A DNA stretch of 61,351 nucleotides, counting the filler, from Sphacelaria rigidula (Eukaryota), in NCBI GenBank assembly GCA_964200075.2. It is 4 parts of 4 records of this genome, joined end to end, with 100 filler letters (N's around TTAATTAATTAA, not from the genome) between each part and the next. Parts side by side here need not be neighbours in the genome. Positions count along the whole stretch, not along the records: positions 30,735 to 45,995 come from CAXNAA020001834.1; 3 more parts are not named here. One strand, written 5' to 3'. Below the pieces are notes generated by a model. The model saw only the letters and a list, made by a program, of their open reading frames with translations. It was not told where the DNA came from and made no database searches. Position numbers and translations under genes: made by a program. How positions within the stretch are numbered: the first letter of the stretch is position 1; the number at the start of each line of letters is the position of its first letter. Positions 5,338 through 61,230 of this stretch are shown piece by piece.

Positions 5338-5643
5338 CACTCATGATCTTGCATGCCGTACTCGTATGACCATTGACTTTGCATCCCAATAAGGTCGGAA
5401 CGGAGCACGCCGGGTTTTCGTCGGATCAGCCTCGCACTCAATCACCAAGCGAGGAGCGAGGAGCGCCGTGATATATTCGGCGAGTCGCATGAAGGGTTCG
5501 CTCCATCCTGCTGAGATTGTTCGGCCCGGAGCATGCTGAATATCTTGCATTTGGATGACAGCTTCCAATGAGATGCTTCATTTTCTGGTATTGCCACTTC
5601 CGGAGACAGCCACGGGTTACACACTGCCTCGTGAATATCTCAC
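5338..5643 (-). mobile_element. 5'-truncated LINE 3' end (family 2, terminus GGCATGCAAGATCATGAGTG) with 16-bp TSD
   Basis: Flanked by CATGCTACGATAGGGG (5322-5337) and CATGCTACGATAGGAG (5644-5659); terminus matches 34356-34452 and 44213-44259; encodes a GCKVNG motif like the GCVVNG end of the 29796-30634 LINE. Confidence 0.8.
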
Positions 5644-6902
5644 CATGCTACGATAGGAGTGGGTGCTTGATTCTACGAAATAAAAGGGCTCTCACAGGAG
5701 TGTCAGACGACCTTACACACGCACAGTGCGCTTGCATCTGGATATAACCGGCGTCAAGCAGTATGAACGAGCGGAGTTTATCGGTAACAAGCACTTGCGA
5801 ACAACCGTTGCTGCTTTCAACGACAATATGAAGTGAAAGTTCGAGGAAGAAGTGGTCCAAAATACCCCCCCCCCCCCCCCCCCCCCCCCCTTTCTTTCGC
5901 CTACTCCCCCCACCCCCAAAACCAATATTAATAAATATTTTTTACATCTCACCAGAAACCCATCCTCCTGTTGTAGCCTGACTCCACACACACGGTCAAA
6001 ATATATGTATGAATACATTTTTACTCCCCCTGAACAGCAGTACACGGTCGGTTTGGATATTCCGCACAACGAGTAATGAACGAACACTTATGATTTTTCG
6101 AGTCGTGAGTTTGATTTCCATCCCAAAATCACACCGCGTTTCTTCCGAAAACAGGTACTTTTCTCCCTTCAAAGTTGATTTTTCTCCGTGCTGTTTCTTC
6201 GCTGGAAGGGTTTCCTCCGTTAGCCACCACGTAGTTTTGCCTTCGGTCAACGTAAAAAATGAAATAAAGGAAATAATAAAAGTGTGGTTCTGCATGTAGC
6301 TGAAGTAGCCAAGATCACCACGCGAAAAATACGTGTTTCTTCTTGTCTGCACGGTAGAACATACGACACCCTGGTACATCCACTAACAAAAAATCTTCGC
6401 CACATTCATACAGGAGTATATAGTCCCGGGAGAGGAGATGGAAGATGACCATCCCTTTTTCACGGTATTTCTTTAAACGTTCCGCCTTGCAGGGCATGAT
6501 AAAGAACAAATGATGCAGGGAAAACCTTGCTTGAGCCCTCAAATGTAATCGACCTTATATTTGTGATCAGAAGGGATACCTATGTATATATATGTGTATA
6601 TATATATTAATATTCAAGCTCCTGCGCCCCGATGGTCTAACTAGTACAACAACAACAACAATGCTTGTGATTTTTTTTTGTGCTCTTTTTCCTTTGCTCT
6701 TTCCCTCTTCTCCCTCCTTCCTCCACATGTCTTTCTTTTCTTCTTGCACTGGCGTTGCCTGTTGTCAAAGGCCACAATATACCGTTTCCCCTCGAAGCAC
6801 CCGACCAACCCCCGTCACAATCGTACACGGATGAATATGTGTATCATACTCCTTCGTACATTTATAAACAAAAAACTTCATTGTTTGTTGGTAGTATACC
6901 AG

Positions 6903-15470: not shown

Positions 15471-15780
15471 GTATCACGGATATTTGACCGCCCATGTGTA
15501 CGATGATTTATGGTAACCGAGAGATAGGAACACCCTTCATCGCCGAAACCGTTCACCGCCCTTCATATTCAAGACCCATTCAGCAAACATAAGGGCACAG
15601 GACTTAACAATTGGGTAAGCGAGGCCTGAACTATGACCACTAACACTACGGGTGGAACACGGATGCATGTACTGACAACCATGGAACCATCAACTATCAT
15701 AACCCGTTCCTAACACTACATGTTGTTTTCGCATCCTAACTCTGCGGTACTCGGTAGACTCGACGTGCCTTCCTCACTAC

Positions 15781-15945
15781 CCTCCCCCCCGCTTTGTCGA
15801 CCATCAGCTCCTTGGAACGCTTGGCGATACACGCGGCCGCGTACAAGCGGCAATCAACTCCCAGCGTGCCTGATGGTCCCCCAAGCTATCTGTGCTCCGC
15901 GACCTCCTTGGCGGAAAGTCGGTCTGCCGGAGATACCGTCAAGAG
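15781..15945 (-). pseudogene. Inverted dead copy of the kinase exon (LLTVSPADRLSAKEVAEHR*LGG...)
   Basis: 165 nt with CAG/GT ends mirroring 16093-16257; TGG>TAG stop. Confidence 0.75.
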
Positions 15946-16092
15946 CTGTATGATCGGCGGGACGCGTCAGGGATAGGGAGGGAGGGAGGGGGTGAATTCA
16001 TGATCTTGCATGCCGACTGCACCCTCGGCATCCAAGATCATGAATTCACCTCCCCCCCTTCCTATCCCTGACGCGTCCCGCCGGTCATACAG

Positions 16093-16257
16093 CTCTTGAC
16101 GGTATCTCCGGCAGACCGACTTTCCGCCAAGGACGCATCGGAGCACAGATGGCTTGGGGGATCATCAGGCACGCAAGGAGTTGACTACCGCTCGTACGCG
16201 ATCGCGCGTACCACCAAGCGATCTAAGGAGCTGGAGGCCGACAACGCGAGGAAGAGG
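16093..16257 (+). pseudogene. Orphan Ser/Thr protein kinase exon, subdomain XI (LLTVSPADRLSAKDASEHRWLGG...)
   Basis: CTGAC branch-like site, CAG acceptor 16090-16092, GT at 16258, 165 nt open; fits the LL..dP..R.sa.eal.HpWl pattern; no other kinase exon seen in scaffold B. Confidence 0.7.
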
Positions 16258-17141
16258 GTAGTCAGGAAGGGACGACGAGTCTGCCGAGTACCGTTGAGTT
16301 AGGTTGTGGCAACAGAACAGTGTTAGGGACGGTTGTGATAGTTGATGTTCCCATGGTTGTCGGTACATGCATTCGTGTTTCACCCGCAATGTTAGTAGTG
16401 TTGTCACAATCCCCCCGCGTTCGTTTGGTTCATCTTTTCATGGGCATGGGCCGTGTCACACGGAAATATCAACAGACAACACCTCATCGAGAGAAGAAAT
16501 GAAGTCTCGGTACGAAAATACATCGCCAACGACAATATACTTTTCCTCTTTCCCAAGTGTAGTCTCTCATAATTGGGTGAGACTCTCATCATTAACGTTC
16601 TCAGAATTCCATGAGTTGTGTCAGTGCCCAACTTCTGGGATCATCTATCAATCAATGACACTTTCTACGATAGCCCCCCCCCCAAAAGTGCATGGTTTTG
16701 GGAGGCAAAATCTTCACGTAAATCAAAATGGGAAAAGCCGAGCACAACGAACAGCTGGGGATTTTCACGCTTGGGCTCGTTCAATCAAAGTGTTCTAGCG
16801 CCGAATATCCCTTGTAAGAGGGAAGTATGCCCCGTGAAAGAAACGAAACACCCTACGGCAGCGGAGAAGAGGGTTCTCTTTCGTGGTCGCTGAAACAACA
16901 TGCAAAGCGCAGCACTTTCCAGCCAGCCGAGTGTTACTTTCACAGCTTGCGTTTCTGGCGATAACCCCCTCACCATCCGGGACGGAAACGCAAAAGAAGC
17001 GAACTATACAACAGTGCACATGCCAGACACGGAAGCATCCCTAGGAAAGGGGGCTATTCTCCTTTCTCTATCAAGTACATTTTGTCAAGATATGCGTTTT
17101 CAGTGTTGAACGTCAACATGTCGCACCCCACACACGAAGTT

Positions 17142-21344: not shown

Positions 21345-21660
21345 TTTTATTTAATTTGTCGCACTTTGCACCCCTTCCCTTCCTCAGGATTAGTCCGTGG
21401 ACTCAAGGGGTGAACCCATTTCTCCCCCGGTACACGCCGTGCATTTTGGTCTCGCGGATTGGGTCATGACTATCAGCACTCCCGCACCGCGTCAACTCAA
21501 GTCACACAAATCCAGGTGATTACTCTTGTGTACTCACGTTCTCACGTTTCCCACGGTGGAAATCAGACATGAAGAAAAACCCAACGGATCGGGAATCGAA
21601 CCCTCGTTTCCTCCACCTTAATGGCGACAGTCCGATAATTACAGCCCCGGGGCGCGGCGG
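21345..21660 (-). mobile_element. tRNA-derived SINE-like repeat (second family)
   Basis: Minus-strand B-box GGTTCGATTCC near 21593-21603; body matches 36983-37140 and partly 34476-34610; AAAT-type tail. Confidence 0.65.
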
Positions 21661-24469: not shown

Positions 24470-26012
24470 GCAGATGCGTCTGCTCGCCTTCTAGATCTTA
24501 CGGATAGGGATAGTGACAATTCGGCTCGCCCATTGTCTTCTACCTCAGCTCGGTCACTGCCTGACGCCACCGCAGCCAAGCAACAAGCTGCCGCTGATAA
24601 AGCCGCTTCCGATACTCGTAGAGAAGCATCTCGTGTCGCTGCAATCAAGCGTGAGTACTTACAGATGGATGTCAAGAAACTATGGCATATCAAAAACCAT
24701 GCCTGCTGCAGACAATGAAGACTCTGGTCAGTTTACATCCGCTCTCATTTCCTCAATGCGTCGAAGTATTCGCAACAACCTCGAGTTGGCCGACGCAACT
24801 GGACAACAACGTTTCGAAGACTCTGACTGGATTGATGGATGGCAAACCCCGTTACATAAGGCTTTGCAACGCTCAATCAGCCGCCGCTCCCCTGACATCG
24901 CTGCTTCCTTGACGCAGATTCACGACTCCTTCTTCCAAGCCATGGATCAAGATTGTGCCGGCGGGCAAACAGCACCGCTACTATTCGGCAATTTGGAAAT
25001 GCGTATCATAAGTTATTTTGATAAGTCCGACCAGGCCGGCGCCATCGAGCGCCTTAGCTCCTTCGCTGTGGCAACGGATGTATCCTTTGCTGACTACCTA
25101 CGCGACTTCAAGCTTTTGGTGTCTGGTGTAACTGGTACTGACCGACAGAATGGCCCTAGTGATGCTATTTGTCAGACGTATGTTCGCAATCGTATCGCTC
25201 AGCGATTTCCGACGCTGATGCCGTCTCTGTTTCCGGGAGCTCTGGCGCACAAAGAGGTGCCTTACGCCTCCGTAGACGCGATGTGGACTGCGTTTGTAGA
25301 TCAGGAACATAATTTAACGCCTGCCATTCGTGGCACACAGTGTTCTTCCGGGTCTTCGCAAACTTTGCGTGCCGCATCCACGAGTACCTCCAGGTCTTGT
25401 GGACGCACTCACTCTTTATCCAGTAATACACCCAACTCTGTCGGTGGATCAGTCATGTCTGTTCATAGCAACAAAGACCCGTTTCGAGCAAGCTTCGACG
25501 CTTGGCCTTATTCGGCAGAAACGTTTGATGACGTTCACGTCGTTCCCACGACTGCTTTCATCACAGATGACCCACATTTGTGGACCCCCTTGCTTTCGCC
25601 TTCAGCTCGCAAGGATGCTTTTCGTCGCATTGCTAACACATGCATCAACTGCAATGGTACTGGTCACAGTATGCGTGACTGCCCTGAACTTTGCATCAAT
25701 ACTTTTTCGCTCATGAACCCTAAACTTCAGAGCAACGGGCCGGCGTGGCACCAATGGCAAAAACGCATGCGCGAGTATCGTACACCATCTCGCCACCATC
25801 GCCAGTCTTACCACCATCATAGCGACTCTCGCTCAAATCGCGACCGCCGCCACACCACCACCACCGTCTCAGGTACTCGCCACAGAGATAGTTATTTCCG
25901 CCCTTCTCAGTCTTCGCATGGTCATCACCAGCGAACGGGGCCGAGTCACGACAACTCAAACCCCAGTGCCAGAAACCCTGGTTCTTTTAAGACGGATCGA
26001 AACGATCCATGA
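24264..26012 (+). mobile_element. Ty3/Gypsy-like gag (frameshifted near 24691-24698)
   Basis: 499-codon ORF with zinc knuckle CINCNGTGHSMRDC (CX2CX4HX4C) and FADYLRDFKLL capsid-like helix; upstream frame 24176..24718 overlaps it at a CAAAAACC run. Confidence 0.8.
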
Positions 26013-27461
26013 CACGCCGAAGACGGCGTTAAGTCTTCGGCGCCGCCGATAGCAGAATCGAAGACTCATCCAACACACACCGCCGCTCGGGTGACAAGAC
26101 GTTCTCACCCAAACTTTTCGACTCTATGTAGGAAATCTAAGGACGGCCGTTCTTCTCGACCCCCGTCTCTATCTTCTCACACACAGCGTAACCGCTGTGT
26201 TGACCCACCACCCAGCTCTATGCTTGGCTCCAGAATTGGTTCTCCTGAACCAAGTATAAATCTGAGGCGTGGGAAGACCGACCGCGGACCCTTGAGACAC
26301 AGGCTTCCCTCAACGACCACACGCACCGGTTGTAGCAGACGTCCTTCAACTGGTTCTGGTGTCGACGGTTTGAAACTGACCACTTCAAATCCTTCGACTC
26401 CTACCCAGCCTGATCGCAGTCGTTCTTCGCGCCACCCTTCTGCCGCGAAACTACCCCGACATACAACGGACAACACTCGTCCCCTTTCACATTTAGCAGT
26501 GCCCTTTGTACCGAGCTTGCCAGCGGCCGAGCATGCCCCGATGCTGACAACATCACCTCAACTGGACGCAGTTGCAGTTTCCCAAGAAGTCTTGGAAGTT
26601 CCCAGTCACTTGTCACGGCACGAGAGGAAGCCTCGTCGTTATGCCCCCAGAAAAGCGCGAGCATTGACACGTACCCCTCCCGCCAGCGGAAAATTCCGAC
26701 CTCGTTCTCCCCAAAAAGCGGCGACTTTGAGCTCGATGACATTGCCAGGCATCCAAGAGGAATCCGAATCGGACCTTTCAGACGGTACCGCATCCTCAAC
26801 TGATAACCCCCGTGGCACTTCGCAGCAATCTCTCTTCAACGACAACCCTTGTGTTTCCAAGCCAGTCATCTACGAGATTGATCAAAATCCTGATTCACGC
26901 TGCCCCTCACGATCGGATCACATCCCCACGCTGTCTACTGATACCTTTGAACCCCCCGCGGATCGCCCGCCATCCGCCTTCACGGTCAGTCCGACTTATC
27001 CTGATCCATTCACGTTATCTGAACATGGCCCTGATCTCGTTGGTGGTAAGGTGCCCGTTGACCCTGCCAACTTCACTATCCGCGTAGCATTACACTGCGG
27101 CCCTTACGCCACCGCGCGCGCCGAGTGCGTCTCGTTGCTAGACAGCGGTAGTCCACAGATATTCATCAAAGAATCCATGTGGAATCATATGAAGCAGACT
27201 AGCGCTGCTTCCGATGTCTGCGAAATCACCACCCAACCTCGCGTTTGGGGCGGTTTCGACGACTCCAAAACACCCTTGATGACACGAAAATCTATTCGTC
27301 TCAGTGTAAAATTTTCCCACAATGATACACGTTCGGCTAGTCTCGCAGTCTGGGCTTACATCGTCCCTGATAGCACCATGCATCATGCTCTCCTTCTTGG
27401 CAGAGACAGCTACATGCGGTTCAGAAATCTGTTCGTCGTAGCCAGATCAGGCAGTAATTGA
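26013..27461 (+). mobile_element. Retrotransposon pol 5' part: S/P-rich linker plus aspartic protease, truncated before RT
   Basis: LLDSGS catalytic motif and LLLGRD C-terminal motif of retropepsins; same frame as gag after a single TGA; no RT or integrase motifs follow. Confidence 0.82.
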
Positions 27462-29046: not shown

Positions 29047-29795
29047 GCGTGGCTACTGCTAGCGATGGAAACCAGCTGTGCGCCCATGAACAGTCACGTG
29101 AATTTTATACTTCGTGTCAACAGCATTGCATTTTCAACTTCGACAAGACAGTACTCCCTGCCAACTGCATTCGTTCGAAATGCAATAGTAGTACAGCAGC
29201 TCGGGTAATCCAGCAGAGACCAGACAGGTTTGGCAAGATTTAAATACACGATTGTGCAATGACAGGTGCAGCACATGAGAGAGTCGTCTGCGTGCGCTGC
29301 TGTACAACAAAACATGACATGTCCCTTTTCACTTCTTGTGCCACCTTTGAAACAGGTCCTCAAGCCTTTAGAATCGTCCCCCAATTCTGAGCGCTTGGTC
29401 AAAATGTTGCAATTTTTGGGGTCCGTTCAGAATTTTGGGGGTCTAAATCTTGACGGTTTTGTTTCATAATGGTCACTTTTGTGACCATCTGTTGAAAAAA
29501 AAGGAAAAATAAAATCTGAACGGCTCCCTTTAGAGTAGGTCTTAGAGTTGGCCTAAGAAGTGGTTTTTTGGGCTGTTATCAGAAAACGCATTATTTATTC
29601 ATACCGTTTTTTTGCAATTAAGATGCAAAAAAGCACCGCACCAACTAGCCTTCCAACAGGGGGCACACAAGATGATGACATGTACAAACGAGTAAACGAG
29701 ACCATCGGGCGGGGATATGAACGCGCATCGGCGTGGAGTGGTATGATCACGGCACAGTATACTACTGCATCAGAGTCATGCTCTGATAGGGGGGG

Positions 29796-30634
29796 CGTAC
29801 TCATTCGTTGCTTGCTTTAGTCGTTTGGCCATTGACCACGCATCCCTTTCGAGACGGAGCGCTCTTCCCCCTCCAAATAGAGACACCTTCAACATTCCGG
29901 CGCTCATCACGCTCCTTCTCTACACTACACGAAAACATTTCACATATCTTATCCCCGTCCTGTTTCGCTGTCTGTGACCACCATCTATCTCCTAGTATAG
30001 CCATCGTTTTCTCCCTACTGTCTAACGCATCAAACAATTCCATGCCATCTTTGTTTCCATCCCGCATTTTTCTCTCTAGCACGTCCTGTTGCTCCTTGTA
30101 TAGTTCACATTCTGCCACTACATGAGTTCTGCTCTCTATTGCTTTGCCACAGGGGCAATTCTGTGCATCTACGTCCATCTCTCGAATACTGGTATTTCTC
30201 TTTATTTTTTCTGGCAGGTCCAGGTCCCCCACCCGAAACCGCAATTTCATATTTTTCGCAGCGTCCATTGGGCCATGCAGATATGTTTACATTCCGATCC
30301 CCTCTCTCGACCACCCGTATATCTTCAGGTGTTCTTCCTCGTCTACGTTTCGCTGAGCGCTCCTTATTCTCTTATTTCGATCATGTCTCTTACTTTTGTC
30401 TTGTACCCCGCGCCTTCACCTATGGACAGTATTTCGTCTTGGTTTCCTCCTATCGCCTTCCATACTTTCTCGACTTCTCTACCCCATCTCATTCCAGCGT
30501 TCCCATTCGTACTTTTGTTCCATACAGCCTCATTAACTATAGCTGGCAAACTCTTTCTCCGCATATTCTTTACGCTATACTGCCATCGCAATTTCCTCAT
30601 GTCTCTGTTTGTTTCAAGTGAGTACATTCCCAAC
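29796..30634 (-). mobile_element. Non-LTR retrotransposon (LINE) ORF2 C-terminus, family 1, decayed; cut by scaffold end
   Basis: Post-RT region with knuckle CPCGKAIESRTHVVAEC, KLRFRVGDLDL and ILGDRWW; stop codon ~5 nt from the element end, then a C-run; internal stops. Confidence 0.85.
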
Positions 30635-30734: not shown

Positions 30735-33391
30735 CCTTCTTCGCTTCTCTCTCCCTCGAACCCACATGAGCATACTCTGCAAAGCCGGCGGATGAGGGTG
30801 TTTCACCCAAATAGTGCGGTTGACAACTCACCATTGCTGAGTAGTCGCGGCCTGTTGCCACGGCAAACTGCCTTTCCTGGAGCCTGTCGGTTTCTTCTTG
30901 AGTTCAGGATTAGACGTCAGTCTACCGTTTTTGTCAGACTATCATTTTCTGCCGTTTGCATCTCTCCTTCCTTTTTGCGGCTACCCCTTTCCCTCGAAGG
31001 ACATCATTTTAGCAGTTGCTACCTAACCGGTAGACTATGAAGAATTCGGGCGCATTTGTTGGAGAAGGAAAAATATCAGTAGAGAAACGTCCGCAAGTGG
31101 CCGCCGTGGACATGGATGTTGCGCTGCGGAAAAGAGTAACCCATGCTCGACGATTGCGAAGGCCATTGCGCAAGAAATGGTACTGGAACACTCTTGCCTA
31201 AGCCGCGGTCACTCAATGTTTTCTTGAAACAGTTACGCGTTATGGTCGGAGTCAGCCCCTGTTTCAGTAGCACCAGTGGCAATGGGGTATGTATGTCCCA
31301 TTGTCTGGTCTTGTTTTTCGTGTCGCATACACCACATGCTCGAAATACCAGGACCGGAGCAAAAAACTAGCATGTCTGAAATTAGATCGTGCACGTTCAC
31401 TTGGTTTTATGTGGAAATAGCCTGCATCATTCGCTGCAAGTCGGTGACATGGATGCTAGGGATGGGCCTCTCGGGAAGGAAGTGAGAACTACTAGTAAAC
31501 AGCACTGCTCGTTCCCCCGGCCTGCTAAAAGCTTACCTTCGCAGCAGGTTTTGTGTAGGGGTACGGCCAGCGGTTTTTTCATCAATGAAGTGTCATGTCC
31601 CGTGAACGAGATCGTTCCAATATGTAGCTGAAATGTTTGTGCGTGCATGTAAAAGACCAAGCCTAGAATGTAAGTGACGTCTGTTGCATGCACCAATCAT
31701 GAACCAAAGTACCCGGAGCAACACTCGGCACATCTTGAACCCGGTGTTGGAGCACAAAAAGTATATCCAGGTAGCACCGAGCAAGAGCATCGGAGATAGA
31801 GATAACATTTTGAAGTCATGAGCTACGAATGCATCGGTGTGCGGTGTGTGCGATACGGGCGCGTCCTTGGTGATGGTGGGAACGTACATTGAGTTTGCCC
31901 AGGGTCACCAAGGAGTTTCCGTCGTTATGAGTGCTGCGGACCGCCCTTTTCGCAATAACATCGCCGTGGGTTCGGAGTTCCGAGGAGGGGTGGACCGTGG
32001 ATGATCGCCGAAACATTCGCGTCATGAGCGCTACCGAGCGTACACCAAGTATGTACGGTATCAGCGAGTGAAACTTGTCGTTACTACAGGGGTTCTCCTG
32101 CAGAGACGAACGGGAACCCAAACCCCGAAACCTCAGTCAAGCCCCGCCTACCGGCCTTTGTGGGCATGCCTATCTAGCCGATCCACGTGAACAGATACTC
32201 ACAGATCTTGCGTACAAAAAGTCGGTATTGTTCTACTACTGTTGGATGTGCAGCACGAAGCTGCCACCTACTACTTCATTCAAAACAGCGATGGGGTTAG
32301 GTTTGAGGTGTGGCAGTTGGTGGCAACTGCCGATAATATTCTTGAGAGTTTATTTGTTGTTCGAGTCCACTCGTGAGTGTCTTGCTCAAGACTTTGACCA
32401 GGTTCGAGTTCGGGCTGTGGTGATGCCGGTAGGCTCGGTGCACTGAGAGTGAGTGATTCGCCAAGGAAATGACTCGAGATAGAAATCAATATGAACTGGC
32501 CCGGTGTGAGTACGGGTTCATGGTTTTGATATCACGTGGCACGCGTGTTCACACGTAGCACTTCATAGTAGTTTGTCGCGATGTCGCTCGTCATGCAGTA
32601 ACGATCACGCTGAAAGAGATCTCTTGATTGTTCCTTGATTTTGGCCCCGAATGGTTGAGATGTGCGCGATCCGCAACGGTTGTCGCTGAAATTGATTCCG
32701 AAGATGGAGTTATTCAGAGCGGTCATCGACAGCTTTCTAACTTTGTAGCTAAGACCCGTGTCCTTGAGCTATTGACCCCCGAGCTTCCGATGTACCAGGT
32801 ACGGGACAGAGGCCATCCTCGAAGGGCTCGGGTCCTACCTTCACACCAATACGCGTTAGCCCGGAAACGTCGCAACGGGCATTTGCGGCACAATACAGAA
32901 CGCATTGTTTGTGTATTCGTTCTCAAGAAAAACAGTTTCCTTTAAACACGCATTTCACCATACGTTGACTGAAAGGGCCTCAGTGTCTTGATTTGATATA
33001 ATGCATCTAATGCGGACCGCTCCGGCAAAATTTTTCGAGTTGTTGCGTCGCAGTCATCATGCGATATTCGCAAAGCGGACAGGTTCCGGCGTGTGCGTAA
33101 ATATTGAAATATTTGAGGACGAGCATGTACATCCTTCTGTGAAAACACAGAGCGGAAAGCGCGCAATCATGCGCGGTGCCGTACGTCTAGAACTATTGTG
33201 TGCACTGGTAAGGGGTAGCCCGGGCTGATAACCAAGCTACGGCAGCGGGCGTTAGGTATCTCGCGCAGAGTTTCCCGATGTCTGACTCTACCGCTTTTGT
33301 GACACCACGTGTTTTGTTGGCGTCTCAAATCTCAAGCAACCTCGATCTAGATCTCCAGTGCATGCACGGTACGGCCGGCCCCTCTGCACAG

Positions 33392-33571
33392 GTTCCCCCG
33401 AGACGGATCGCGCAGCGCTGCTTGACCTCTACAACGAGACCGGCGGCCCATATTGGAAAAACAATCGTGGGTGGCAGGACAATGATCTGGACCTCAGGAA
33501 CTGGTACGGTGTCACCACCGATTCAGACGGCAGGGTGGTAAAGTTGGAGCTCTTCGGCAACAATCTCCGAG
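33392..33571 (+). CDS. Leucine-rich repeat protein, N-cap exon ((G)SPETDRAALLDLYNETGGPYWKNNRGW...WYGVTTDSDGRVVKLELFGNNLR(G))
   Basis: CAG acceptor 33389-33391, GTAATG donor, 180 nt, phase 1-1; DR.AL..LY..TGG..W....GW...W.GV...GRV..L.L..NNL.G cap typical of brown-algal LRR/ROCO proteins. Confidence 0.88.
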
Positions 33572-34355
33572 GTAATGGGCGCGCGTTTCCAAAATACATC
33601 CCCTGCCGTTTGAGACATGCTGCGAAATCGACACTCGGTTGATGAATGACGTGACTAGTACCGTTGTAGAGCGCAGATATGCATCCATCCGATTCGAGTC
33701 TCCACGAGTTTTCGTTGAGCTTCATTGAGATGAATCACGTTCGCGTCGAATGAGTTGAGACAACACCTGGAATGGACTTTCCGTGTAGCCAAGGTTTTGA
33801 ACTGAACTTTTTCAACGAGCGCGCAATGCCCATTCCGTTGAGCGTGAGACAGGGGGATGTTTTGGTCGTTTGCAATCGTTATTCGTTGTCGTTGGCGTGA
33901 TGAGATCGTCTGAGTTGACATCGGAGTACGTGGGCTTATTGCTGGAGTATCGCTTATAGTTAGATGGTTCGACAGCACTTGAGATCAACTGTTAATTTTA
34001 GAGTTTCAGATATGATGGTGAGCACGCTTGTGCACACGAATCATACGCGTCACCGATTGCCGAAAAGCAGTGAAACGAGCTGAGTCGCGGTCTGTGTTCG
34101 GGGAAGCGTTGGGATGAACTATTCCTAAAACCTGTCACAGGCCGGAACATTAGCATCAAATGAAGACGCTTCTCGATGCCGACACATGATCAAGGTTGTG
34201 TTTATTACACCTATTTGGCTCATCGCCACCATCAATGTGTGCAACTGGTTGTGGAGGTGCGTTATTTTTTGTTCACTCTCTATCCTCCTTCCCACCCTTC
34301 CTCGGGACGAGCCCATGGTCAAAACAGAACCCATCGTCCCCCCCCCCACTACACG

Positions 34356-34452
34356 AGCCTCGTCCGGCGAAAACCCGGCGTGCTGCGTCCCGGCTTTGTA
34401 GGGGTGCGAGGTCAATGGTCTTATGACTACGGCATGCATGAACATGAGTACA
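34356..34452 (+). mobile_element. 97-bp LINE 3' stub (family 2) with 17-bp TSD
   Basis: Flanked by CCCCCCCCCACTACACG at 34339-34355 and 34453-34469; encodes GCEVNGLMTTA. Confidence 0.85.
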
Positions 34453-35028
34453 CCCCCCCCCACTACACGCCTTACATTTTCGTATCGCGGGTAGGGTCAG
34501 CTCGTCTGCGCACAGCGTCAACTTTCGTCATTCAAACGTAGTTAACTAATTTTTGTCTAACCACGTGCTTGCGCTTCCGACGGTGGAAATCATCCACTTT
34601 GAAGAAATGAACCGACGCATCTGGCGGATAACTAAGCCACATTCTCTCCGATAGTCGAAGCACTAGACCACTAGGGCGCGCGATGGAGATGAGAGGGAGA
34701 TGTCGTACATTTCTAGTGGGTAATTTGAACTTCGTGATGTTCTCAAATTTCGATTTCGTATTGCTCGACCGCCTTTTTTTCCCCTACCGCTCTGTGTGGT
34801 GTTCCGTTTATTGCTCGAGAATGATGGGCTTATTCGAGACAAGCGGGTAATTCCAGATATCGGGAAAAGCAGACAGTAACACAAAACCGGAAGAAAAGAG
34901 ACTGGCTCTGCCCAGCTGCGACCTCGTGGCAGTGGATACGCCAGCTCTCGGGCGAACCCTTCACCTCTGTCTTTGAGTATTTCTGCCCCCCCCTTTGCGG
35001 AGGTGGTCAGCACTTTCCTTCCGGAATC

Positions 35029-35352
35029 CTATTTAAACAAACAAAAAAGAGGTACACACAAGACCAACCCAGGGAAAAGGTAATTGAACAAGAAGGGACC
35101 AATCACCATACCCTGGTTCCACCCTCTCTGGAGTAGTTCGTCGGTGGACTGACTGTCGTGCACACCCAAGTGACTGCTGCCTTTTCTCAACACTTGGAGA
35201 TGTGGAGTGCTTTCGGCTTGGTTGTTGAACACAACCGAGGACGTGGGGGGAAAGTGAGGGGTAGTTTCACTCTCCCGTCTTGACCGCTCCGACGATTGGC
35301 CATCCGCCAACGAAAAACCTCTATTATAATCAGTCATCATCCGCCAGCACAC
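35029..35352 (-). mobile_element. Possible decayed LINE reverse transcriptase fragment
   Basis: QRGWNQGMVIGPFLFN resembles the RT motif GVPQGSVLGPLLFN; no YADD seen. Confidence 0.35.
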
Positions 35353-35437
35353 ATGTTGAATTTACACGAAATCGTACGTACCATTTGGCTGTCGTGCATT
35401 GTATGGACACCGAACAGGGCAGAAAATGGATTTTTTT

Positions 35438-35665
35438 CTAGCCCTCAGCCGCCGAAAAGTAGGTCATGACAGAGTACGTAGTGTTTGCTACAACGCATCT
35501 TTGATTTGTCACACCTGTTATTCGAGAAATCCCGGAACGCACATGTGGGCACCAGAGTCCTGAACCTTTCCGACCGTATGCGAAGACGGAGTCTCGTCGG
35601 AGTGGAATACAGACAATTTCTTTGTATAACCACTCCTTGCTCCACGAGCATTTGTCCTGTTTGAC
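35438..35665. repeat. Dispersed repeat, diverged copy at 45667-45902
   Basis: Shared TAGCCCTCA.CCGCCGA, CACATGTGGGCA and CCTTGCTCCAC.AGCA.TTGTCCTGTTTGACA. Confidence 0.75.
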
Positions 35666-36982
35666 ATTACCTCGTCGGAAAGCAGTCTTGCAATAGATCC
35701 GGATGTGCTCCAGCCCGCGAGGTTTTGTCAACCATCGACGGCACAAGCTGCAGATACACCCTCAGCCAGCTAGGGTATCCGATAGTACGTTCAAATTCGA
35801 ATGTAGTGAAGATGACGAACTCTTGGTGATCGAAGGGTTAATTTCAGTGTCAGGGACGGGGAGCCTCTCGGGACGATGATGACGCAGCGTCCATGTATAC
35901 AATATGTAATGCGCGTGGGTAGTTTACACCATGTACGATTCACAGGGTTGAGCGGCACTGTGTGGTCCAGTACTGTGAGTGCCGTAGCTGAACGCTGCCT
36001 GTCCTGTAGCTTGTAGTGCTGTCTGATGATGGTACATTGTAGGTTGCTAGATCGTCGTCATCGTCGCATGTATCAGCTCCAGCCATCAAATATCACATAA
36101 CGCAACGTACACACGATTGGCTGTATGTTAGATACGGTCCATCTCAGCAATCAATCTTTATTATCCCTGGGCCATATTGCAGCCAAGCTTGTTAAAAAAC
36201 TTGTCAACATGGAGCGAGGTGTCGACAGGTCCTATGCATCGGTTCCGAAGTTCGGTCCAGTCTGTCGAGATGTCTTTTTCTGATTTCGTCATCACGCCGC
36301 GTCTCGATGAACCGCTGGTACGTGCGGAAGTGCACTATGACATACACACAATGACAGTGGAACCGTGACTGGAGATTTCGGCGTAGCAGTGGGTTCCAAC
36401 TGTTCAACGTAGTACGCGTTATGTTCCACGCACGCCGCGCTCGTGGCAGATGAATGAGAACAAGCACCCAAATAACACGGTATTTGCGTTTGTGGTTTTG
36501 TGTAACGTTGGGATTCACACACCAGAGCGCAAAACCGCCCCCTTTGTAAAGGCTGGAACAGGACACAAAATCTGATTGTTGGAAGTACTTGAACTTCGTG
36601 ACATTCGGATATTTGACGTTGTAACATGCACGATTTTGCAGCGCTACGTTCCGTGGGGTACGGGTTTCTGTACTCTCGGGATCTAAGCTTCAAACAGTCC
36701 CCGCACCGCTAAAATGCCCACCTCCCGCTGGCGAGGAGCCGGCGGCGGCGAAAATTTGGGAGATGTCAGCACAATTTTCATCGCAATGTCACTACAGATT
36801 ACAGTGTGAAGTGTGTAGCAACGTTGTTGTTTCTGCTCTTGCACATTCGAAGCCGTTTCGATACCTGCCAGGCACTTCTTCCGTACTGGGCATCTGATGC
36901 GGACGCCTTCCGTGGTCACAGGCTAACTACCCAGAATGCGGCACAGGGAAATCCATAAAAAATGAACTGTTTATTGTTTTTT

Positions 36983-37240
36983 CATTTATTTATTTATTTG
37001 TCGCACTTCGAACCGCTCCCCTCCCCCGAGACTAGGCCGTGATCTCAAGGGATCAACCTGTCTCTCCCCCCCACAGGCCTTGAATTTTGGTGTTGCGGGT
37101 TAGATCAGCACTCACGCACCACGTCAACTCACGTCAAAACAAGCTCAGCCGACTACTTTGCAAATACTTCAAAACCGTCTCCGTCCGTGTACAGTAGGGC
37201 GTAGAAAGGATTCGAACCACGTGCAGTGCAGACACTACGG
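36983..37240 (-). mobile_element. SINE-like repeat related to 21345-21660
   Basis: TTTGTCGCACTT, CTCAAGGG, ATCAGCACTC and CGTCAACTCA shared; minus-strand B-box GGTTCGAATCC near 37208-37218. Confidence 0.62.
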
Positions 37241-37689
37241 TGATGTCTGTACCTTCTGGATACAGTTGGGTGTAGACGACGGTTTGCATACAGCAGTACA
37301 GCGGTCTGCGGACAGCATCAAAGAAGGTTGCCTCCCCTGTGGATGATTAGGGAAGACAGTCAATTAGTCATCGCTGCTTCATTTTTATCCAGTGTCGTTT
37401 ATGATGATACAGAACGCTCTCCTCGTGTGTCTTCCAACGTTATGGCGGGAAATAGTCGCCCGGAACTTTGTTTTGGCTCAACGTCGAGCTAAACGGACCT
37501 GACTTGTTTCTTCTCCTTTGGCGATTTGGATTATGCCGCACATTTGTCTTGGCCTGCGGCGAAAAGCTCTGCCCGGCAGAATTGGCATGCGTGATCAGCC
37601 ACATTGCAGGATGTGCGCATTCCCTCCTTTTCAGTCCATCCCGTGCGGAACCGCAACAGCGCAATTCCTATTTCAAGCAAGCCGTGCCT

Positions 37690-38030
37690 GGAGTATTTAC
37701 CCGGTTCGTACCCGTACCCCACGGTTTTTTTCAGTTGTGGAAGCCTTCCATACCCATATACGGGACACGGGTTCACCCTTGTAGGAATGTCCGAATGAGG
37801 GCGCGGTTTTTCGTACAGTGTACATACCCGTACTCGACAGTTCTGTCGGTTCTGCAAGCCCCCCACATCGATACGTGGCGGTTTCTGTAAGTTGTGTTAG
37901 ATTATCATACACCTAGCTGACAGTTCTGTTGAGTTCTGTGAGGCTCCTTTACCCGTAGCCGGCATGCTGGTCTACCCGTCAACAAAAACCCGTTGCTGGT
38001 GCGAGCAGGGGTATATGCCCTGGGTGTATA
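37690..38030. mobile_element. Decayed fragments of the TACCCG/GACAGTTCTGT hAT family (also ~36650-36680 and ~38710-38790)
   Basis: Same subterminal motifs as 9138-10916; no intact TIR pair. Confidence 0.5.
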
Positions 38031-39217
38031 TGGAGGTGGGATCAGTCCCGACACACTCTGACGTTATAATGACACACACACACACACACACGCGCGCGCA
38101 TCATACATACCCACCTCGTCCACTCAAAACCAAAACCACACACTTATAGAACAAATGTTGGAAGCGGATGTGAACTATAAATATAGTGTTTATTTGCGCG
38201 GGTGGGTGGCCTTCGTGTATCGCTTTGTTGACTCCTGCACGTTGTGTCGGTGGAACTCAACAAAATGTGGCATGCTTGAAGGCGCGCAACGAATACGCGT
38301 GATGGACTCGAAACAATAAGTTGTCATTTGTGCGGTTTGTATAATGAGTACAATACGTTCATGGTTCGCTTTCTTATTCATTTCGGTGTTGACCATTTTT
38401 GTTTCTACTTGCACCGTGTCCAATTTCTATTTTCAAGGGGAGTTCAGGGTTCTACAACCATCGGTCCTCTATCATTATTAATGGTAATATTAATAATATT
38501 GATGATTCATGTTGCATTTTCGGCATGCAAGTATGAGCTGTTGACACTTATCATCAATGCGCTCCGTATTTCAATCGCGTTCATGCACTAGCCCTACGTA
38601 GTAACCTTCGTGTCGGTCATCAGTATATCGTGTATCACTTGCGGTATACGGCATGCATTCGCTTGTTTTTCGCCCCATGATGCCGGAAACGTGCCGGATA
38701 TGCCCAGGCTATTTACCCTGGCATTTCCCGTACCCCACAGTTCTGTCCGACAGTTCTGTACTAAGGTTGACCTTTACCAGGGTTAGGGTATTCCAGAGGT
38801 GCACGAAAAGAATATCCCGCACACCTACGTACTCCTCACGCCCCCCCCCTCCCCCATCCTCCTCCGCGGGGCCTGTAAAAAAAATTGAAGTGTCTTTTTT
38901 TGTTTATTTTCGTTCTTCTGCCTTTCCCCTCTCAATCCGTGTGTATAGTCAATGCACGTTATCTTTCAAAAGAAGTGCTAAATACTCGCACTTACCTGTT
39001 GCAAACACGTGCATGCTGCTGTGGGTTGGCATGGCTTCGTTTGATGGTCGTGGTTTGAGACGATCCCGGACCAAGACCATCCCCCGCGGCGGCAACCTTC
39101 GACAAATGTTACTAGGAGCGAGAACAAGTTACATCTAAGCTTGTGCAAATCGGTATTGATGGAAGGGACTCATCGAGCCTACAACGATGGTAGTGTGCAC
39201 AGTGTTGAAAATAGTTC

Positions 39218-40436
39218 CAAGGTTTTGTTCTGTAGGGTACGGTTCGGGTTTCTGTAAACCCGAGGTATTTTGCTGGGTATTTATCGTGCCCGACAGTCCC
39301 GTGACTTCTAGAAGACATTTATACCGGTGCCCGACAGTTCTGCAATCTCTGTAAGACTTTAATATCCTTACGCGATAGTTCTGTAATCGCTGTAAGACTC
39401 ACGTACCGTTACCGGGGGGCACGGGTACGCTCTTGATAAGATACCTGATTGCGGGTACGGTTTTCAGCGCGACCTCCATGCCCTACCCGACAGTTCCTGT
39501 GAGTCCTGTAAGCGTCCCATACCCTCACACGATAATTCTGCGAGTTCTGTACATAATCTTTACCCGTACCCGGAGCGCGGGTATGCTCCTGAACAACTAC
39601 CCGATTGCCGGTACCGGTTTTCTGTAAGCCTCCCATACCGTACCGGACAAGTTCTGTAATTTCTGTAAGACTTTCATCCAGTACCAATGCCCCGACAGTT
39701 CTGTGAGCTCTGTAAGCCTCTCATACCCCTCCCCGGGGTTAGGGTATACCGTTACAGATATACCCGATTGAAGGTTCGAGACAGGTACATACCTTGGAAA
39801 GGTACGAATATGGATTCGATCCAAACACAATCTCATGACCTGAACATGTACCTCGCATCGATCAACCCATCCAACTCCTTCATTCAAAACTGCACACCAA
39901 CAATAATTCGATGTTGAGAAGTTCTCTAGTTTGGGATCTGACGGCAAACGAGGTACCGCTGAGTGGAAGCACGAAACATGAGCAGCACAGCAGACGGTCA
40001 GGATGGATCACCCCCAGACTTGAGTGGTGGCTCGAGCGGGGGTGGTTCATGCGCCACCAGGGGATCAAGCAGCAAGACGCACGTCATCGACGTTGATGCT
40101 GGTTGTGTCGTGGTCATCAAACCCCAGGCCGTTATCGACATGTACAGCACAGACTAAGAGCTACCACTGAAAGTCGTCGAGGCCATCAGCGATTTTGTCG
40201 CGTGCCAAGGGGCATCCGGAGAACGGGCAGCCGTGAATGCTCCTTCATGTACTCTCTGGGAGTGTACGTGAAACCGATAGATGTTGACGATCCCGTGCAC
40301 ATGTACTACTTACTGCGAGTGTTCGTGTAGTCTTTCCTCATCAACCCCGTGAAGCCGTTCAGAGGTTTCGTGAACTGTCATCTGTATTTCGCCAGTGTTG
40401 TAGTGACGTAGGTCCCACCACAGGGGTGATGAGAAT
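39218..40436 (+). mobile_element. Second copy of the left 1.2 kb of the 9138-10916 hAT element
   Basis: Starts CAAGGTTTTGTTCTGTAGGGTACGG; colinear with 9138-10335 through GGTCCCACCACAGGGGTGATGA.AATAC; no 3' TIR or TSD found. Confidence 0.85.
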
Positions 40437-41573
40437 ACCACAGGGGTGATGGTCGCTACAGAAGAAGGCCCGGAGAGTGGAGTAAACTGTGGACAGGAAG
40501 CATGCAAATATACACACGCGAATAACAAGCAGAAAGTGTGCAGAAAAGAACTAGAGAACAAGGAAAAACAGTCTCGGTGAAAAAGATGAGAAAATAAGCA
40601 AGAGAGAGTGAATCGAAATGGCACTAGGAATGGGGGGGGGCTGCATCATGGTGTCAGGTGAAATAAGCCGTGCGATAAATGCACATACACTCCCACGACA
40701 ATACTGCTCCACATGTTGGTTCATCTACACGCTGCGCGACGTCAGCAGGTGTATTTTCATCTACCGAGCTGTTCTTAATAATGTCTGTCTCATCGGGACG
40801 CGAAATGTCACGTTCGAGAAACAGCCCCCCCGTGATCGATCGCAGCTATACCGCCTTTCCCACCAGCCCCCCCTCGAAATCATTTTCAGATGGAATGTGG
40901 CGTCTGGTCCAGGAATGTAATTTCGAACGACGTCTTTATGTAGTTTGTGCAAAATATGTGGATTATGTTGAAAACATGACATGCCTCGAAAGGGAAGAAC
41001 ATGGTGATCCCTAGGCGGTGCGTACTGAGATCCGACGTTACACACGCGTATGGCATACAGCCACTCATGAAGTTTCGAGGCCCGCAACGGGCAAGCAAGG
41101 AAATCATAGAGCGGGCGGTAGATGTCGATCGGCTGCTCGGTTAGTAAGGAGTGTGTTGAAAAATCGATGATGTCCGACCATATGTGTTTACGCCTACTGT
41201 TACGACTCATGTACCACCACCAATATCTCCCCTGAACACTAGCACATACACTGCCGCAATTTGGAAATGGCTTCTGAAGGTGACGTGATAGCATCCCAAT
41301 ACTATAGCGACGCTCAGCCCTGACCGCATGATGCTAAATGAACGAGACATGTGGCATGGGCGAGTCAACCGGAGGCAGGTGTGGTGTATATAGGGCATGG
41401 CTGTGGTGCGTTTCCATGATAGGTATGGGTACAGGTCTCCACAGATGCCCGTGATTGTGTTGCGGTGTGCACGCCGTGGTGGGCACGTTGTGTAGCATTG
41501 TGCGGTATGGCTTGTCCACGCTTGATGCTTTGCAGGTATGCTGAGAGTCCCCCTTTCGCATGTTACCGGGCAG

Positions 41574-41645
41574 GCTCTATCCCTTCCTCACTGGAGAACC
41601 TGACACGGCTGACGTGGCTGTACCTATCTGGCAACCAGCTGAACG
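41574..41645 (+). CDS. Single 24-aa LRR exon ((G)SIPSSLENLTRLTWLYLSGNQLN(G))
   Basis: CTGAG branch-like site, CAG acceptor 41571-41573, GTGAGT donor, exactly 72 nt, phase 1-1; plant-type LRR consensus; in phase with 33392-33571. Confidence 0.92.
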
Positions 41646-44125
41646 GTGAGTGAAACATTGTGTTCACCGGGATATGTGGTCACGTGCAATATATACGGGT
41701 AACTAGGCATTTGTGTAGCTGCAAGGCACCGCACGAAACGTCGCGAGGGCGCGCTGGAGGGACGTACGTGGAAATAGCATCGGTGGTAAGAGGTGAATCA
41801 GGTGTGTAGTGTGAATGGACAGTAGTTCATGGATATGTTGAGTTGTCCATGACACTTTTGAGCGCCGCTGTACAGGAATTCGCGTTGCATGTTCTCTAAG
41901 GCTTCGTATCACCATGCCGTAACGTAGAGTAGTTTCATATGGTCTAGTGAGTACTTGAGCCGGATACGACCACGACACTTGTCACATGTTTCCAGCTTTT
42001 GTAGGAGTGCGTGAAGAGAAACGATACGAGAAATGCACGATTTCTATAACCGCGCCCGAGAGTACCCTGGTATAGAAAGACTTACTTCCAACTTAGTTCT
42101 GTTGACGCAATATCGACATTCTCTTTTCAAGCAAAGGGTACTGAAAATGCCTTAAAAGTAGGCAGTCCTGTCTCCTGGTACTAAGAGAACACGGACAGTC
42201 GGTGTCAACTTCTAGTAATCTCCATCCTTTTGGTACTCCATCTCTTTGGCAAGAATTATGGATATGGATATGTTTGATATCTTGGAGTCTTCGGCAAGCA
42301 TGCTCCCCCGAAACCGAATTCTCACACAACAGTACTCGCGGAAGAGCTGTCAATAGCATCCACTCTTATTTATACACTACCCCAGCGGATTTTTTACATG
42401 CACGCCCGGGCAGACAAGGAGGTAGTATGATCAGCACCCAGCTGTAGTATTACACAAACATCACCGTAAGAGTCGATACGACCCGCGGAGGCGCTGGCTG
42501 TACTGAAACAGAGGGTGGAAACCGGCAGCCCATTCCAGACTAAAACACGCGATATATGAGTGCACCGGTGAGATTCAGTGGTGACAACGCGTGTGCAGAA
42601 ACAATAGCATACCCGGCGATATAGCCATGAGAGAAGAAAATGTGGGCTGTACAAGCGAGCACGTTTGTTGTACGTGGCAAGTGCGGGCGTACTGTTCTTC
42701 CTTTTGTATTAGTGAATGCATTGCGCATGGGTTGTTTTGATGTGCGCTGTTGCACCCCAGCTGTGCTGAGGGTCGTACTGTATCTGACGCAATAGCATGA
42801 AGTTCAGTAGCCTAGGTCCCCTGCTTACAAGCTCAAAGTGATGACATCCCACGAAGCGGCGACGGAGTTGTAGCTGTCCGCCAATCGGGGTTGCGCTATC
42901 TTCACAAGTTCTCGTGCGACTGATGCACACATTTGTTTTTTCGATGAAGAACAGTCGTGAAACACGCCCCTCACTGCTGATATGGCGATCGTTCTAACTC
43001 ACTTGCGCTGACCACAACATACACGCGGCAACCACGAGCTGGGCATGGTCGGAGAGCTGAGATCCACACCTTCACGCCCATGCAGGTCACGTGATGATGC
43101 CTTGCGGATATTTCAAAACGATTGAAAAACAACGGGGAAATTTGATTTTTGTTTTTATTGGGCAGTGTTACAAGGTCAAAATGCAAGAGATCAGAAGTTT
43201 ACTACTTCTGGCGGATGTGACCACATAGTGTGGGCGGTGGATTTTTGTAGTCCTTCATGGTACGGAGGAAAAGCTGACCTGTAGTACGCTGACAGCAATC
43301 TCCCAGCTTCTCAGCCCCACACTACCGAGTTACTTGGGTGCTATTTGGAACATGTGACCATCACTACAGGATTTACTTTGGCCGGGTCGGATCCGTGAGT
43401 ACCGTGTGAAGCGCTAACTGTGTAGAACTTGTTGCTCGAGCAGTCCCCTTCGATATGAGCGGAAGCACGTTTGCTGCGCAACTATGTTCGTACGCATGTT
43501 TTGTACGGTCGGCTTCCACTACCGCACTCTTGCACTTCCTCCCCTGAACATATGTTCATATATATATATATATATGTATATGTACATCGCGCCACATGCC
43601 GCTGACGAAAAAGACTACAGAGGGAAAACGTCGAGGCGTACTTAAACGGCCGATAGGATGGTACTCGGAGGGCAATCGGCAATGCTGCTCGAGCGAAGCG
43701 TTACACCTGTGCGGTATTCATTGCTACTAGTTTCATGTGCGTAATGTGTGGTACCCGTCCCCCCCGCTCGGTTGGAGGCTCCTGTACTGGGACGTCGTCT
43801 CGAAAGGGATGCGTGGTCAGAGGTGACGTGACCATGGCAAATACCAAATAACAACGTCCCCTCATCCTCGGAACGATTCCGTATTCCCAAGTAATTAAAT
43901 CAAACTCGTTTCTCCACTGGTGCCTGCCTTACATTTTGGTATTTGCGGATCGAATCGGCACTCCCGCTGGAGATCATGTACTGGTAGGGATTCGAATTCC
44001 CAGCCTTTCGCGCTAATTTGGCATTTGTGGATCAGTGAGACTGCAGGTTGGAACAGTATCTTGTTTCGCGCGCAACCAAATGCAACCTCTTGCTATACCA
44101 TGGTGGTCTGGGTACGTTTGGGGGG

Positions 44126-44188
44126 GGTGTACTCATTTGTCGCTTGCCTTAGTCGTTTGACCATTGACCACGTATCCCTTTCGAGACG
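44126..44188 (-). mobile_element. ~60-bp LINE 3' stub (family 1) with 16-bp TSD
   Basis: Flanked by GGGTACGTTTGGGGGG at 44110-44125 and 44189-44204; matches 29796-29857 and 61169-61230. Confidence 0.85.
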
Positions 44189-44212
44189 GGGTACGTTTGG
44201 GGGGAGGGGGGG

Positions 44213-44259
44213 GTACTCATGATCATGCATGCCATAGTCATGAGATCATTGACCTCGCA
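44213..44259 (-). mobile_element. LINE 3' stub (family 2) between G-runs
   Basis: GTACTCATGATCATGCATGCC..CATTGACCTCGCA matches the reverse complement of 34405-34451. Confidence 0.75.
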
Positions 44260-45242
44260 GGTGGGGGGGGATGGGGAGGGATGCTCGGCATCTCTTCAGA
44301 GCGGTTTGACCGTCCAGTGCATAGATCCTGCCGTCGAGTAAGTTGAGTACAAGCTCTTGTTTATTCGGCGGACGTAGTTGGCATTGACGTGAGGAGACGA
44401 TGTAAGCTTGGAGTTATTAGCGTGGGCACATGACAAATTACCTAGACCATTTAATTACAGTCGTAGATGGTGCAGTCTTGCTCGAGTTGTGATGAAGCTA
44501 AATAAAATGACGTACCACGAACGCTGCGCTCCTCACGAATGAACGAACGCAAGCGCACAACTCCAGCTCCGTAACAAAGCCTGGAACAGGACGGAAATAT
44601 TCACTGCTCCAAAGTTCTCGAACGTGGCAGGGGTTCGTGACAGGTAGATATTTGACGTTGTGAAACGCACAGGTTCCCGCCGGAAACAACATCCTCAATA
44701 ACAAAATAGGTGTAGACCACTCGGCAGCACGTGCTCTTCTCGAGTTGTACTTGGATATCGCGGCATACACGATCATTTCCCAATGCGGTTCATACACGCT
44801 GTCAGTTTCCAAAACAATCATAATGCTTGTCCTCACGAAGCTGCAGCTTTGTCCTTACAGCAAGTAGCGGAGAAGGTGTTCCCAAACCGCTTGACAACCT
44901 TCGTCCGGCAGTGAGATGCCAGGGATGACATGCTCGGCATGTGACTCGATTTAGCGGTCACATTGGAGTGAGAAAACACGAAAATAAACAACAGCGAGGA
45001 ATTGAGGACGCTTTAAATTGAGGAATTCCAGACACGCTCTTGGTCTTTACGTCAGCGGTGATGTTGTGAGCCTATGTCTTACAAGTTGAGCAGCTCCGAG
45101 TTTTTTCAGTCGTCCCGCACAAAACATGCAAATCGCGAAATGCCGATTTTAACACATGTAAGTCTTCAAAAGTGCCATCTGTATGTGGTATTGATCCTTG
45201 GTCACCCATCAAGTGGTTCCTCAGGGGCACAGCTGTGGTCAT

Positions 45243-45447
45243 TGTAATGCGTGGGAAAACCGCGTGCTTGGGGGACCGCATCGAAATTTACAAATCCCTG
45301 TGATAAGGGTTAGGGTTAGTGTTTGGATTAGGGTCAGGGGCGTGGTCCCTGCAGGGACTGGCTCGAATGGCTTTGAAAATCGTCGATCCTGAGGTGTTTT
45401 GAACTACGATGCGGTCCCCTAAACACGCGGTTCTCCGACGCATTACA
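45243..45447. mobile_element. MITE-like element, ~41-bp inverted arms around TTAGGG-like units
   Basis: TGTAATGCGT..AACCGCGTG.TT.GGGGACCGCATCG (45243-45283) is mirrored at 45407-45447; AGGGTTAGGGTTAG inside. Confidence 0.7.
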
Positions 45448-45995
45448 GTCATTTCTCAAAGGATTCACGCATCCCAGGGGAAAAACACCGTTTCGATTGC
45501 TGCAGGAGCAAAAGTGGGAGAAGACAGAACAAGGATCCACGAAACGAAGCGAGCAAAAACAACACCAGACAAGCAGAACAAAAACAAGATTTACAAGTCA
45601 TTAGTGCCTGGGGCGGCCGGGATTCGGAATTGCATTCTGCAAGTCATTCACCAGCCCATATTTCGTAGCCCTCAACCGCCGAGAAGTGAAGCATCACAAA
45701 TACCTAGTGCTCCCTACTCCGTACCTTTGGTTTGCGACATCTTTGACTCGAGAAACCCCAAAACACACATGTGGGCATCCGAGCCCTGAACGTTTCTGAC
45801 CATGCGCGAAGACCTCTTTTCGTCGAAGTCGCATGCAAAACAGCGTTTTTGTCTGAGAAACCATTGCTACACCTTGCTCCACCAGCACTTGTCCTGTTTG
45901 ACAAGACAGCACGCGTTCCACGCTCCCCCCCCCCCACCCCCCCCCCCCCCCCCCCCCCCCCGCTCCCCCCCGCGGGCCGCCGGGGGCCCAGGGCC

Positions 45996-61168: not shown

Positions 61169-61230
61169 CCGTCTCGAAAGGGATGCGTGGTCAATGGTCA
61201 AATGACTAAGGCAAGCAACAAATGAGTACG
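61169..61230 (+). mobile_element. LINE 3' stub (family 1) followed by C11
   Basis: CCGTCTCGAAAGGGATGCGTGGTCAATGG..AAGCAAC.AATGAGTACG matches 29796-29857. Confidence 0.85.

Follow-up and report, generated by a model that had tools for sequence, protein, structure and literature searches.

Results

The window analysed here is a stretch of 61,351 nucleotides of Sphacelaria rigidula DNA, in which four scaffolds of a source assembly of 244 Mb in 27,214 contigs are joined by N linkers. Its plus strand holds, at 34356..34452, a 97-nt, 5'-truncated copy of family A, a short element that appears as the non-autonomous partner of the LINE family B, and this copy begins at a 48-nt segment of which full-length A has a second copy at its 5' end. 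The copy is enclosed by a target site duplication (TSD) of 17 bp, whose 5' side (34339..34355, plus strand; nine C and eight unique bases) has one further C just outside and shares its last two bases with the family A sequence, and whose 3' side (34453..34469, plus strand; nine C and eight bases) carries no extra tail in this copy. The insertion was taken by a dispersed host repeat (34285..34607, plus strand, limits approximate), of which eight unoccupied paralogues show a short C/T tract at the corresponding position. The C10 at the 34339 site is not demonstrably original, since these paralogues carry only a short run, and their short runs fit a preference for the longest run without proving it. 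Other copies of the host repeat lie in the window at 21424-21577, 2417-2665 and 36963-37142, and three family B 5' junctions (L227, L249, L040) were seen just behind the same short C-run in copies elsewhere.

In the window, six 3' ends are clear; each terminates in ATGAGTAC(R) or a sequence close to it and passes into Cs: 5338 (minus), 29796 (minus), 34452 (plus), 44128 (minus), 44213 (minus) and 61230 (plus). Family A accounts for an approximately 309-nt, 5'-truncated copy that entered a MITE terminal repeat at its C-run (5338..5646, minus strand), with a 16-bp TSD containing one mismatch (5322-5337 and 5644-5659), and for a 47-nt copy flanked on either side by C-runs (44213..44259, minus strand). 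Family B is represented by the 3' 839 nt of a LINE cut by the scaffold end (29796..30634, minus strand), which encodes the C-terminus of the ORF with its Cys/His cluster, has its stop 5 nt before the end and is followed by C7 and the MITE terminal-repeat motif; by a 62-nt copy (44128..44189, minus strand) in C-rich sequence that follows an older end of family A, with a 16-bp TSD (44110-44125 and 44189-44204); and by a 63-nt copy followed by C11 (61168..61230, plus strand), on the 5' side of which neither a C-run nor a TSD was seen. A decayed family B 3' fragment of 80% identity (43796..43849, plus strand) has an unrecognisable terminus. The three window TSDs are present as first described, and their last one to three bases double as microhomology with the element.

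A seventh end, at about 16048, had been counted with these six in the sequence-only reading, but it proved to be a weak pair of fragments below the BLAST threshold used. Here two A-like 3' ends of about 23 nt stand back to back (15993..16048, no strand assigned), each followed by a C-rich tract; they read ATGAATTC and lie at the centre of a 770-bp palindrome (15636-16399). An inverted copy of the element end was also seen at the 5' junction in other loci (L185, L173, L359), in L185 together with about 20 nt of the 3' flank, and these inverted ends and the palindrome suggest fold-back of the new cDNA. Unrelated to the LINE ends are a tandem-like repeat region at 11800-14000 and several long stop-free frames, among them those at 53210-56521 (plus strand; 1103 aa) and 24495-27461 (plus strand; 505 and 482 aa).

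The single ORF of family B encodes an APE-type endonuclease, a reverse transcriptase (RT) and, at the C-terminus, a Cys/His cluster. The early observation that the ORF stops about 5 nt from the element end, leaving almost no 3' UTR, holds for this family; L1 differs from it in having an additional reading frame, ORF1, and a genuine 3' UTR. In the degraded copies L228 and L226 the RT domain (PF00078) scored above the Pfam cut-off, in two degraded copies the endonuclease families PF03372/PF14529 remained below theirs, and the APE motifs are present in the majority reading of 15 loci. Both endonuclease families and the RT exceed their cut-offs in P0001, an intact homologue of 1360 aa and 76% identity, whose residues 1 to 1360 can all be aligned to L203 and, with a deletion, to L301. 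The best solved relatives of the protein are L1 ORF2p and the L1 endonuclease. Family B is thus an APE-type non-LTR retrotransposon with an N-terminal endonuclease rather than a C-terminal RLE, and it also has a fixed 3' end, 5' truncation and TSDs of variable length, callable in only 10-17% of copies. Near-complete copies (L302, L307) measure about 5.15 kb plus a variable 5' monomer array of up to about 0.8 kb, and the fragmented assembly under-samples such long copies. The array at the LINE 5' end (L271-L300, L301:178-950) consists of tandem monomers of about 62 nt, at least 13 of them in L301, and resembles the promoter monomers of mouse L1.

The nearest named proteins come from brown algae, namely Ectocarpus sp. 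CCAP 1310/34 (65% identity over the RT, 36% over the C-terminal part) and S. rigidula (65%). Of 80 metagenome loci with relatives, 79 show 21-36% identity to P0001, L371 being the one close match; L371 and L372 are without the 3' end. A long C-run after the stop was not seen in the printed metagenome relatives with a putative 3' region, a weak negative given single copies with undefined ends, and several of the distant ones carry A/T-rich microsatellites there. Among P0001-P0057, the C-terminal motif encoded by the 3' end that families A and B have in common is still recognisable in relatives only about 35% identical overall. Among the 128 family B copies with both ends, the truncation lengths peak sharply at 60-69 nt (55/128), with 21/128 at 33-59 nt and 9/128 at 70-99 nt; the peak, exemplified by 44128-44189 and 61168-61230, falls where the segment common to A and B begins, as does a possible hairpin, and perhaps marks a stopping point of the RT or a footprint within which the RNA is protected.

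Family A is about 560-570 nt at full length, its longest stop-free frame is 56 aa, and no RT similarity was found in it beyond the shared 3' end. The initial description of two LINE families therefore stands for B, with its APE-endonuclease/RT ORF, but not for A, which is without an RT-coding ORF, the copy at 34356-34452 included. The 3' end common to both families is about 65 nt long, with 81% identity over the 52 nt aligned by BLAST, and could form a 6-bp hairpin whose pairs are compatible with both families; its folding z-scores (+1.6 to -1.5) are not significant, and none of its pairs was seen to change on both sides. In full-length A the 48-nt segment stands at the 5' end and again 96 nt from the 3' end (e.g., L073, L121, L002). 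Copy lengths peak at about 90-109, 290-309 and 490-570 nt, the first peak arising partly from the query used. Classification of A as a classical SINE, with a head from tRNA, 5S or 7SL RNA, was not supported (no tRNA in seven loci, no Rfam match at E<=1 in four), although a decayed head could be missed in copies this old.

In the whole genome, N-CCC comes next after 1490 of the 1848 exact family B termini and 268 of the 399 exact family A termini, and the C-run after these ends is not due to chance. Only 10/1848 exact family B ends have no C at all in the three following bases, and none of the ten reads AAA. Among the 309 usable of 319 distinct termini from the fetched loci and the window, C4 begins within 3 nt of the terminus in 225 and A4 in none. 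The base right after GTAC is A in 121/153 A ends and G in 124/156 B ends, and because it is family-specific it was taken as part of the element.

The C-run pre-exists in the target, and insertion is strand-specific. With 5' junctions placed by alignment to family references, independently of TSD calling, C5 was present within 25 nt upstream of the junction in 75 of the 122 copies of a pattern-selected set (18/140 dropped for edges, gaps or fold-backs), against a background of 3.4% and a single G5. The larger set (253 copies used, 66/319 dropped) gave 149 with C5, as compared with 3 for G5, 9 for A5 and 4 for T5. When copies nested behind other elements were left aside, at least 5 C lay just upstream of the junction in 122/214 and a G-run in 3/214, the window background being about 2.3%, and enrichment rose with run length from 2-fold for C4 and 8-fold for C5 to about 30-fold for C6-7 and 60-80-fold for at least C8. 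G-runs are not enriched at 5' junctions, although A/T runs are no rarer in the window. Among TSDs anchored on non-C bases, the target side had at least 3 C in 25 of the 27 called in the strict set (276 copies examined, 75/351 dropped; shuffled-pair rate 0.24%) and in 36 of the 42 called among the 253 copies under looser rules (shuffled rate 0.9%, background 2.7%). The reference for family B was 2318 nt in the larger and strict sets, from which 3 and 5 longer copies, respectively, were excluded. TSD lengths are mostly about 9-19 bp, the predicted second nick lying a median 7 nt beyond the run.

This survey of TSDs and 5' junctions against background supports the original proposal of insertion at C-runs, and the general absence of the run from the 5' side, named beforehand as evidence against it, was not what the 25/27 strict TSDs displayed. 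The targeting is a strong bias, not an exclusive rule: 72/214 non-nested copies have no run of at least 4 C at the 5' junction, and only 5/19 copies longer than 600 nt have C5 there. In L015 and L105 the C-run lies outside the TSD, and L352, L069 and L070 keep only 2 C from a run of 6-9 (in L352, C8 before the element and 2 C after it). As many as 37 of the 253 copies stand directly behind an older terminus, within 50 nt of it (background 1.7%). Among the joints listed for contigs of four runs on 30740-45900, a repeat-swamped set, none removes an insertion and no orthologous empty allele was seen, which is no evidence either way; loose contig ends on this stretch have Cs behind the 3' end in 4/4 runs and, as the majority, a C-run immediately before the ~65-nt point, on its 5' side, in 1/4 runs.

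Paralogous empty sites are offered by a MITE-like host element of about 250 bp (230-253 bp in eight intact copies), each terminal repeat of which contains a C-run. At each end a G-run comes after a 16-bp terminal motif, which has 416 exact matches; in the window this motif lies at 5318-5333 and 29773-29788, and further loci are L321-L370. Unoccupied ends carry at least 5 C in 45/51 cases, so that, by this paralogous proxy, empty sites do hold the run, the contrary outcome having been specified in advance as refuting the proposal. An A or B 3' end stands at the MITE C-run in 6/57 ends, or 3/30 in the unselected first set (three later loci were chosen for being longer, and one of them is filled), where the chance rate, estimated from six ends in 61 kb, is near 0.15% per end.

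A short oligo(C) tail is likely to be added to the 3' end as well, because targets with 3-5 C show 7-17 C on the 3' side in seven of eight cases. In the strict set the eight show 3, 7, 8, 9, 11, 12, 13 and 17 C after the element, which amounts to 4-13 extra C in the seven, and five of them, with exactly 3 C in the target, have 7-13 C behind exact anchors of 6-15 nt. The strict set was used for this purpose since 5/16 'short-target' rows of the looser set were anchor miscalls with zero target C. The inference is confined to this small subset because the copies are old (mean divergence of 7-12% from the family majority), C-runs are mutable, and differences of at least 3 C go both ways, the 3' side being longer in 10 cases and the 5' side in 8; C-runs are also hard to assemble. 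In favour of a tail, the 3' C count does not track that of the target, without significant correlation between the two (rho 0.23, p 0.24). L015 and L105 show that the tail is dispensable. Poly(A) is absent, as the sequence-only reading had it, but 'no tail' was too strong given the likely oligo(C), and the companion statement that the C-run belongs to the target and not to a tail is right about its pre-existence but too narrow in confining it to the target, as seven of the eight short targets gain C.

Discussion

The reading that we find somewhat probable is that the family B LINE nicks the G-rich strand in or beside a C-run and starts reverse transcription on an RNA with a few terminal Cs, family A sharing this end. 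Target-primed reverse transcription follows from family membership. The LINE protein would cut the G strand within the run or next to it, the endonuclease itself having some preference for G-runs; the Cs of the RNA would pair with the exposed Gs at variable register, leaving from 0 to about 13 extra C; and a further nick, at a median distance of 7 nt past the run, would produce the TSDs of mostly 9-19 bp. Family B would mobilise family A through the shared 3' end and its possible 6-bp hairpin. Each insertion would duplicate and often lengthen the C-run, and nested clusters would be expected because such duplicated or lengthened runs make new targets.

The division of labour between protein and RNA is where the closest alternative lies. 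The same elements with the same C tail could have an endonuclease without any preference for G-runs, or use pre-existing breaks at G-runs, so that the bias would come from RNA-DNA pairing only. We regard this as somewhat unlikely, although tail-target concordance of this kind has been proposed for RTE-clade LINEs and SINEs (PMC6007223), five insertions with a gain of 7-13 C needed no more than three G, the endonuclease hairpin region aligns ungapped to that of L1, and longer runs would also offer more pairing registers. Pairing at the run is difficult to reconcile with L015 and L105, in which the C-run outside the duplication means that the primer end held no G-run, and with the three further insertions that keep only 2 C; these five, with 0-2 C of the run retained, lean towards the endonuclease over pairing as the putative chooser of the site, though they are few and could reflect primer trimming.

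A different division, which we consider distinctly improbable, would place the C-run in the target only and leave the RNA without a tail, the longer 3' runs being due to later slippage or assembly error. All three window TSDs are without 3' excess, the differences of at least 3 C go both ways, and for targets of at least 9 C the 3' count is never higher (10/10), as that account would have it. It must nonetheless explain the five 3-C targets with their exact anchors, and a rise in slippage is reported only for runs of about 8-9 units or more (PMC3812793), while the curators of the Ectocarpus repeats list '(C)n 3'' for RTEX-1a (PMC12477816). That the C-run is solely an element-encoded tail, with the 5' C-runs being tails of older neighbours, is scarcely credible: copies within 50 nt behind another terminus do exceed background, but the 5' signal persists without nested copies, the unoccupied MITE ends carry the run, and TSDs include it on both sides.

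Taking the nicking of a G-rich strand by family B as the preferred reading, one may go a step further and imagine, somewhat short of probability, a G-homopolymer-specific endonuclease joined to a C-ended, non-polyadenylated RNA, which would make a C:G mirror of the L1 system of poly(A) and T-tracts, seeding its own targets and helping to build the C-runs of brown-algal genomes. The known tail or target repeats in the papers cited here are A/T-based or of 2-4-nt units, and a LINE with C on both sides offers a clean test of target choice by endonuclease versus RNA-DNA pairing. It also raises the matter of how a LINE RNA gains a C-ended 3' end without poly(A), and for brown-algal genomics it accounts for nested repeat clusters and for insertions into MITE ends.

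Several known systems resemble parts of this one. Like B and presumably A, human L1 and Alu combine an APE-RT protein with a short partner mobilised in trans, and their homopolymer tail pairs with a homopolymer-rich nicked strand (PMC3812793), but with A/T instead of the C/G of our families. Waldo, Mino, Kibi, Koshi and Dong are likewise non-LTR elements that insert into simple repeats, in their case ACAY, AC, TC, TTC and TAA repeats, (C)n being absent from the targets given for them in that paper (PMC3812793); the bias of A and B is strong without being exclusive. In RTE-clade LINEs and SINEs the tail base is the first TSD base, and tail-target pairing was proposed for site choice or priming (PMC6007223); as described there, these elements have A/T-based tail repeats and a T stretch about 10 nt upstream, whereas the tail here is mononucleotide C, and no T peak was found at that distance from the TSD in 136 targets. 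The poly-C of Blepharisma was set aside as a precedent, as it concerns the TIR of a DNA transposon and not a LINE (PMC9942856, 10.1101/2022.05.02.489906). A study of C-run targeting by a LINE was not found in the literature covered, a weak negative given that most subscription journals and Repbase fell outside its scope, and the accessible text of PMC5753468 names RTEX only as a clade.

The closest systems are those curated in Ectocarpus. In a supplementary table of PMC12477816 (MOESM3), RTEX-1_Ec32 is entered as 'single EN-RT ORF; (C)n 3'' and RTEX-2_Ec32 with '(C)n termini/TSD', and all of RTEX-1, -2, -N1 and -N2_Ec32 are listed with 'C-rich' TSDs; the table holds no counts, target-versus-tail analysis or mechanism, and the main-text passages covered, which describe RTEX-N1, do not mention the C trait. 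The idea that such a specificity was undescribed must accordingly be given up, since the trait is already recorded in that table for what are likely the same families. Compared by features and not by sequence, family B agrees with RTEX-1/-2_Ec32 in its single EN-RT ORF, (C)n 3' end and C-rich TSD, with about 5.15 kb and a variable monomer array against their 5.5-5.9 kb (PMC12477816). RTEX-N1/-N2_Ec32 are non-autonomous elements of about 600 bp, with a 60-bp 3' end 83% like that of the LINE, a 5' head given as unknown and tandem arrangement entered as possible (PMC12477816). Family A, compared in the same way, is non-coding like RTEX-N1_Ec32, similar in length and in the likeness of its 3' end to the LINE (81% over 52 nt), and often nested where RTEX-N1/-N2_Ec32 may be in tandem; it differs from these in being about 40 nt shorter and in the 48-nt direct repeat at its 5' end, a feature unmentioned in the table. 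The A/B pair is very probably the counterpart of these curated Ectocarpus RTE-X families, so that the phenomenon itself was already on record, and what is new here is its quantification and the separation of target from tail.
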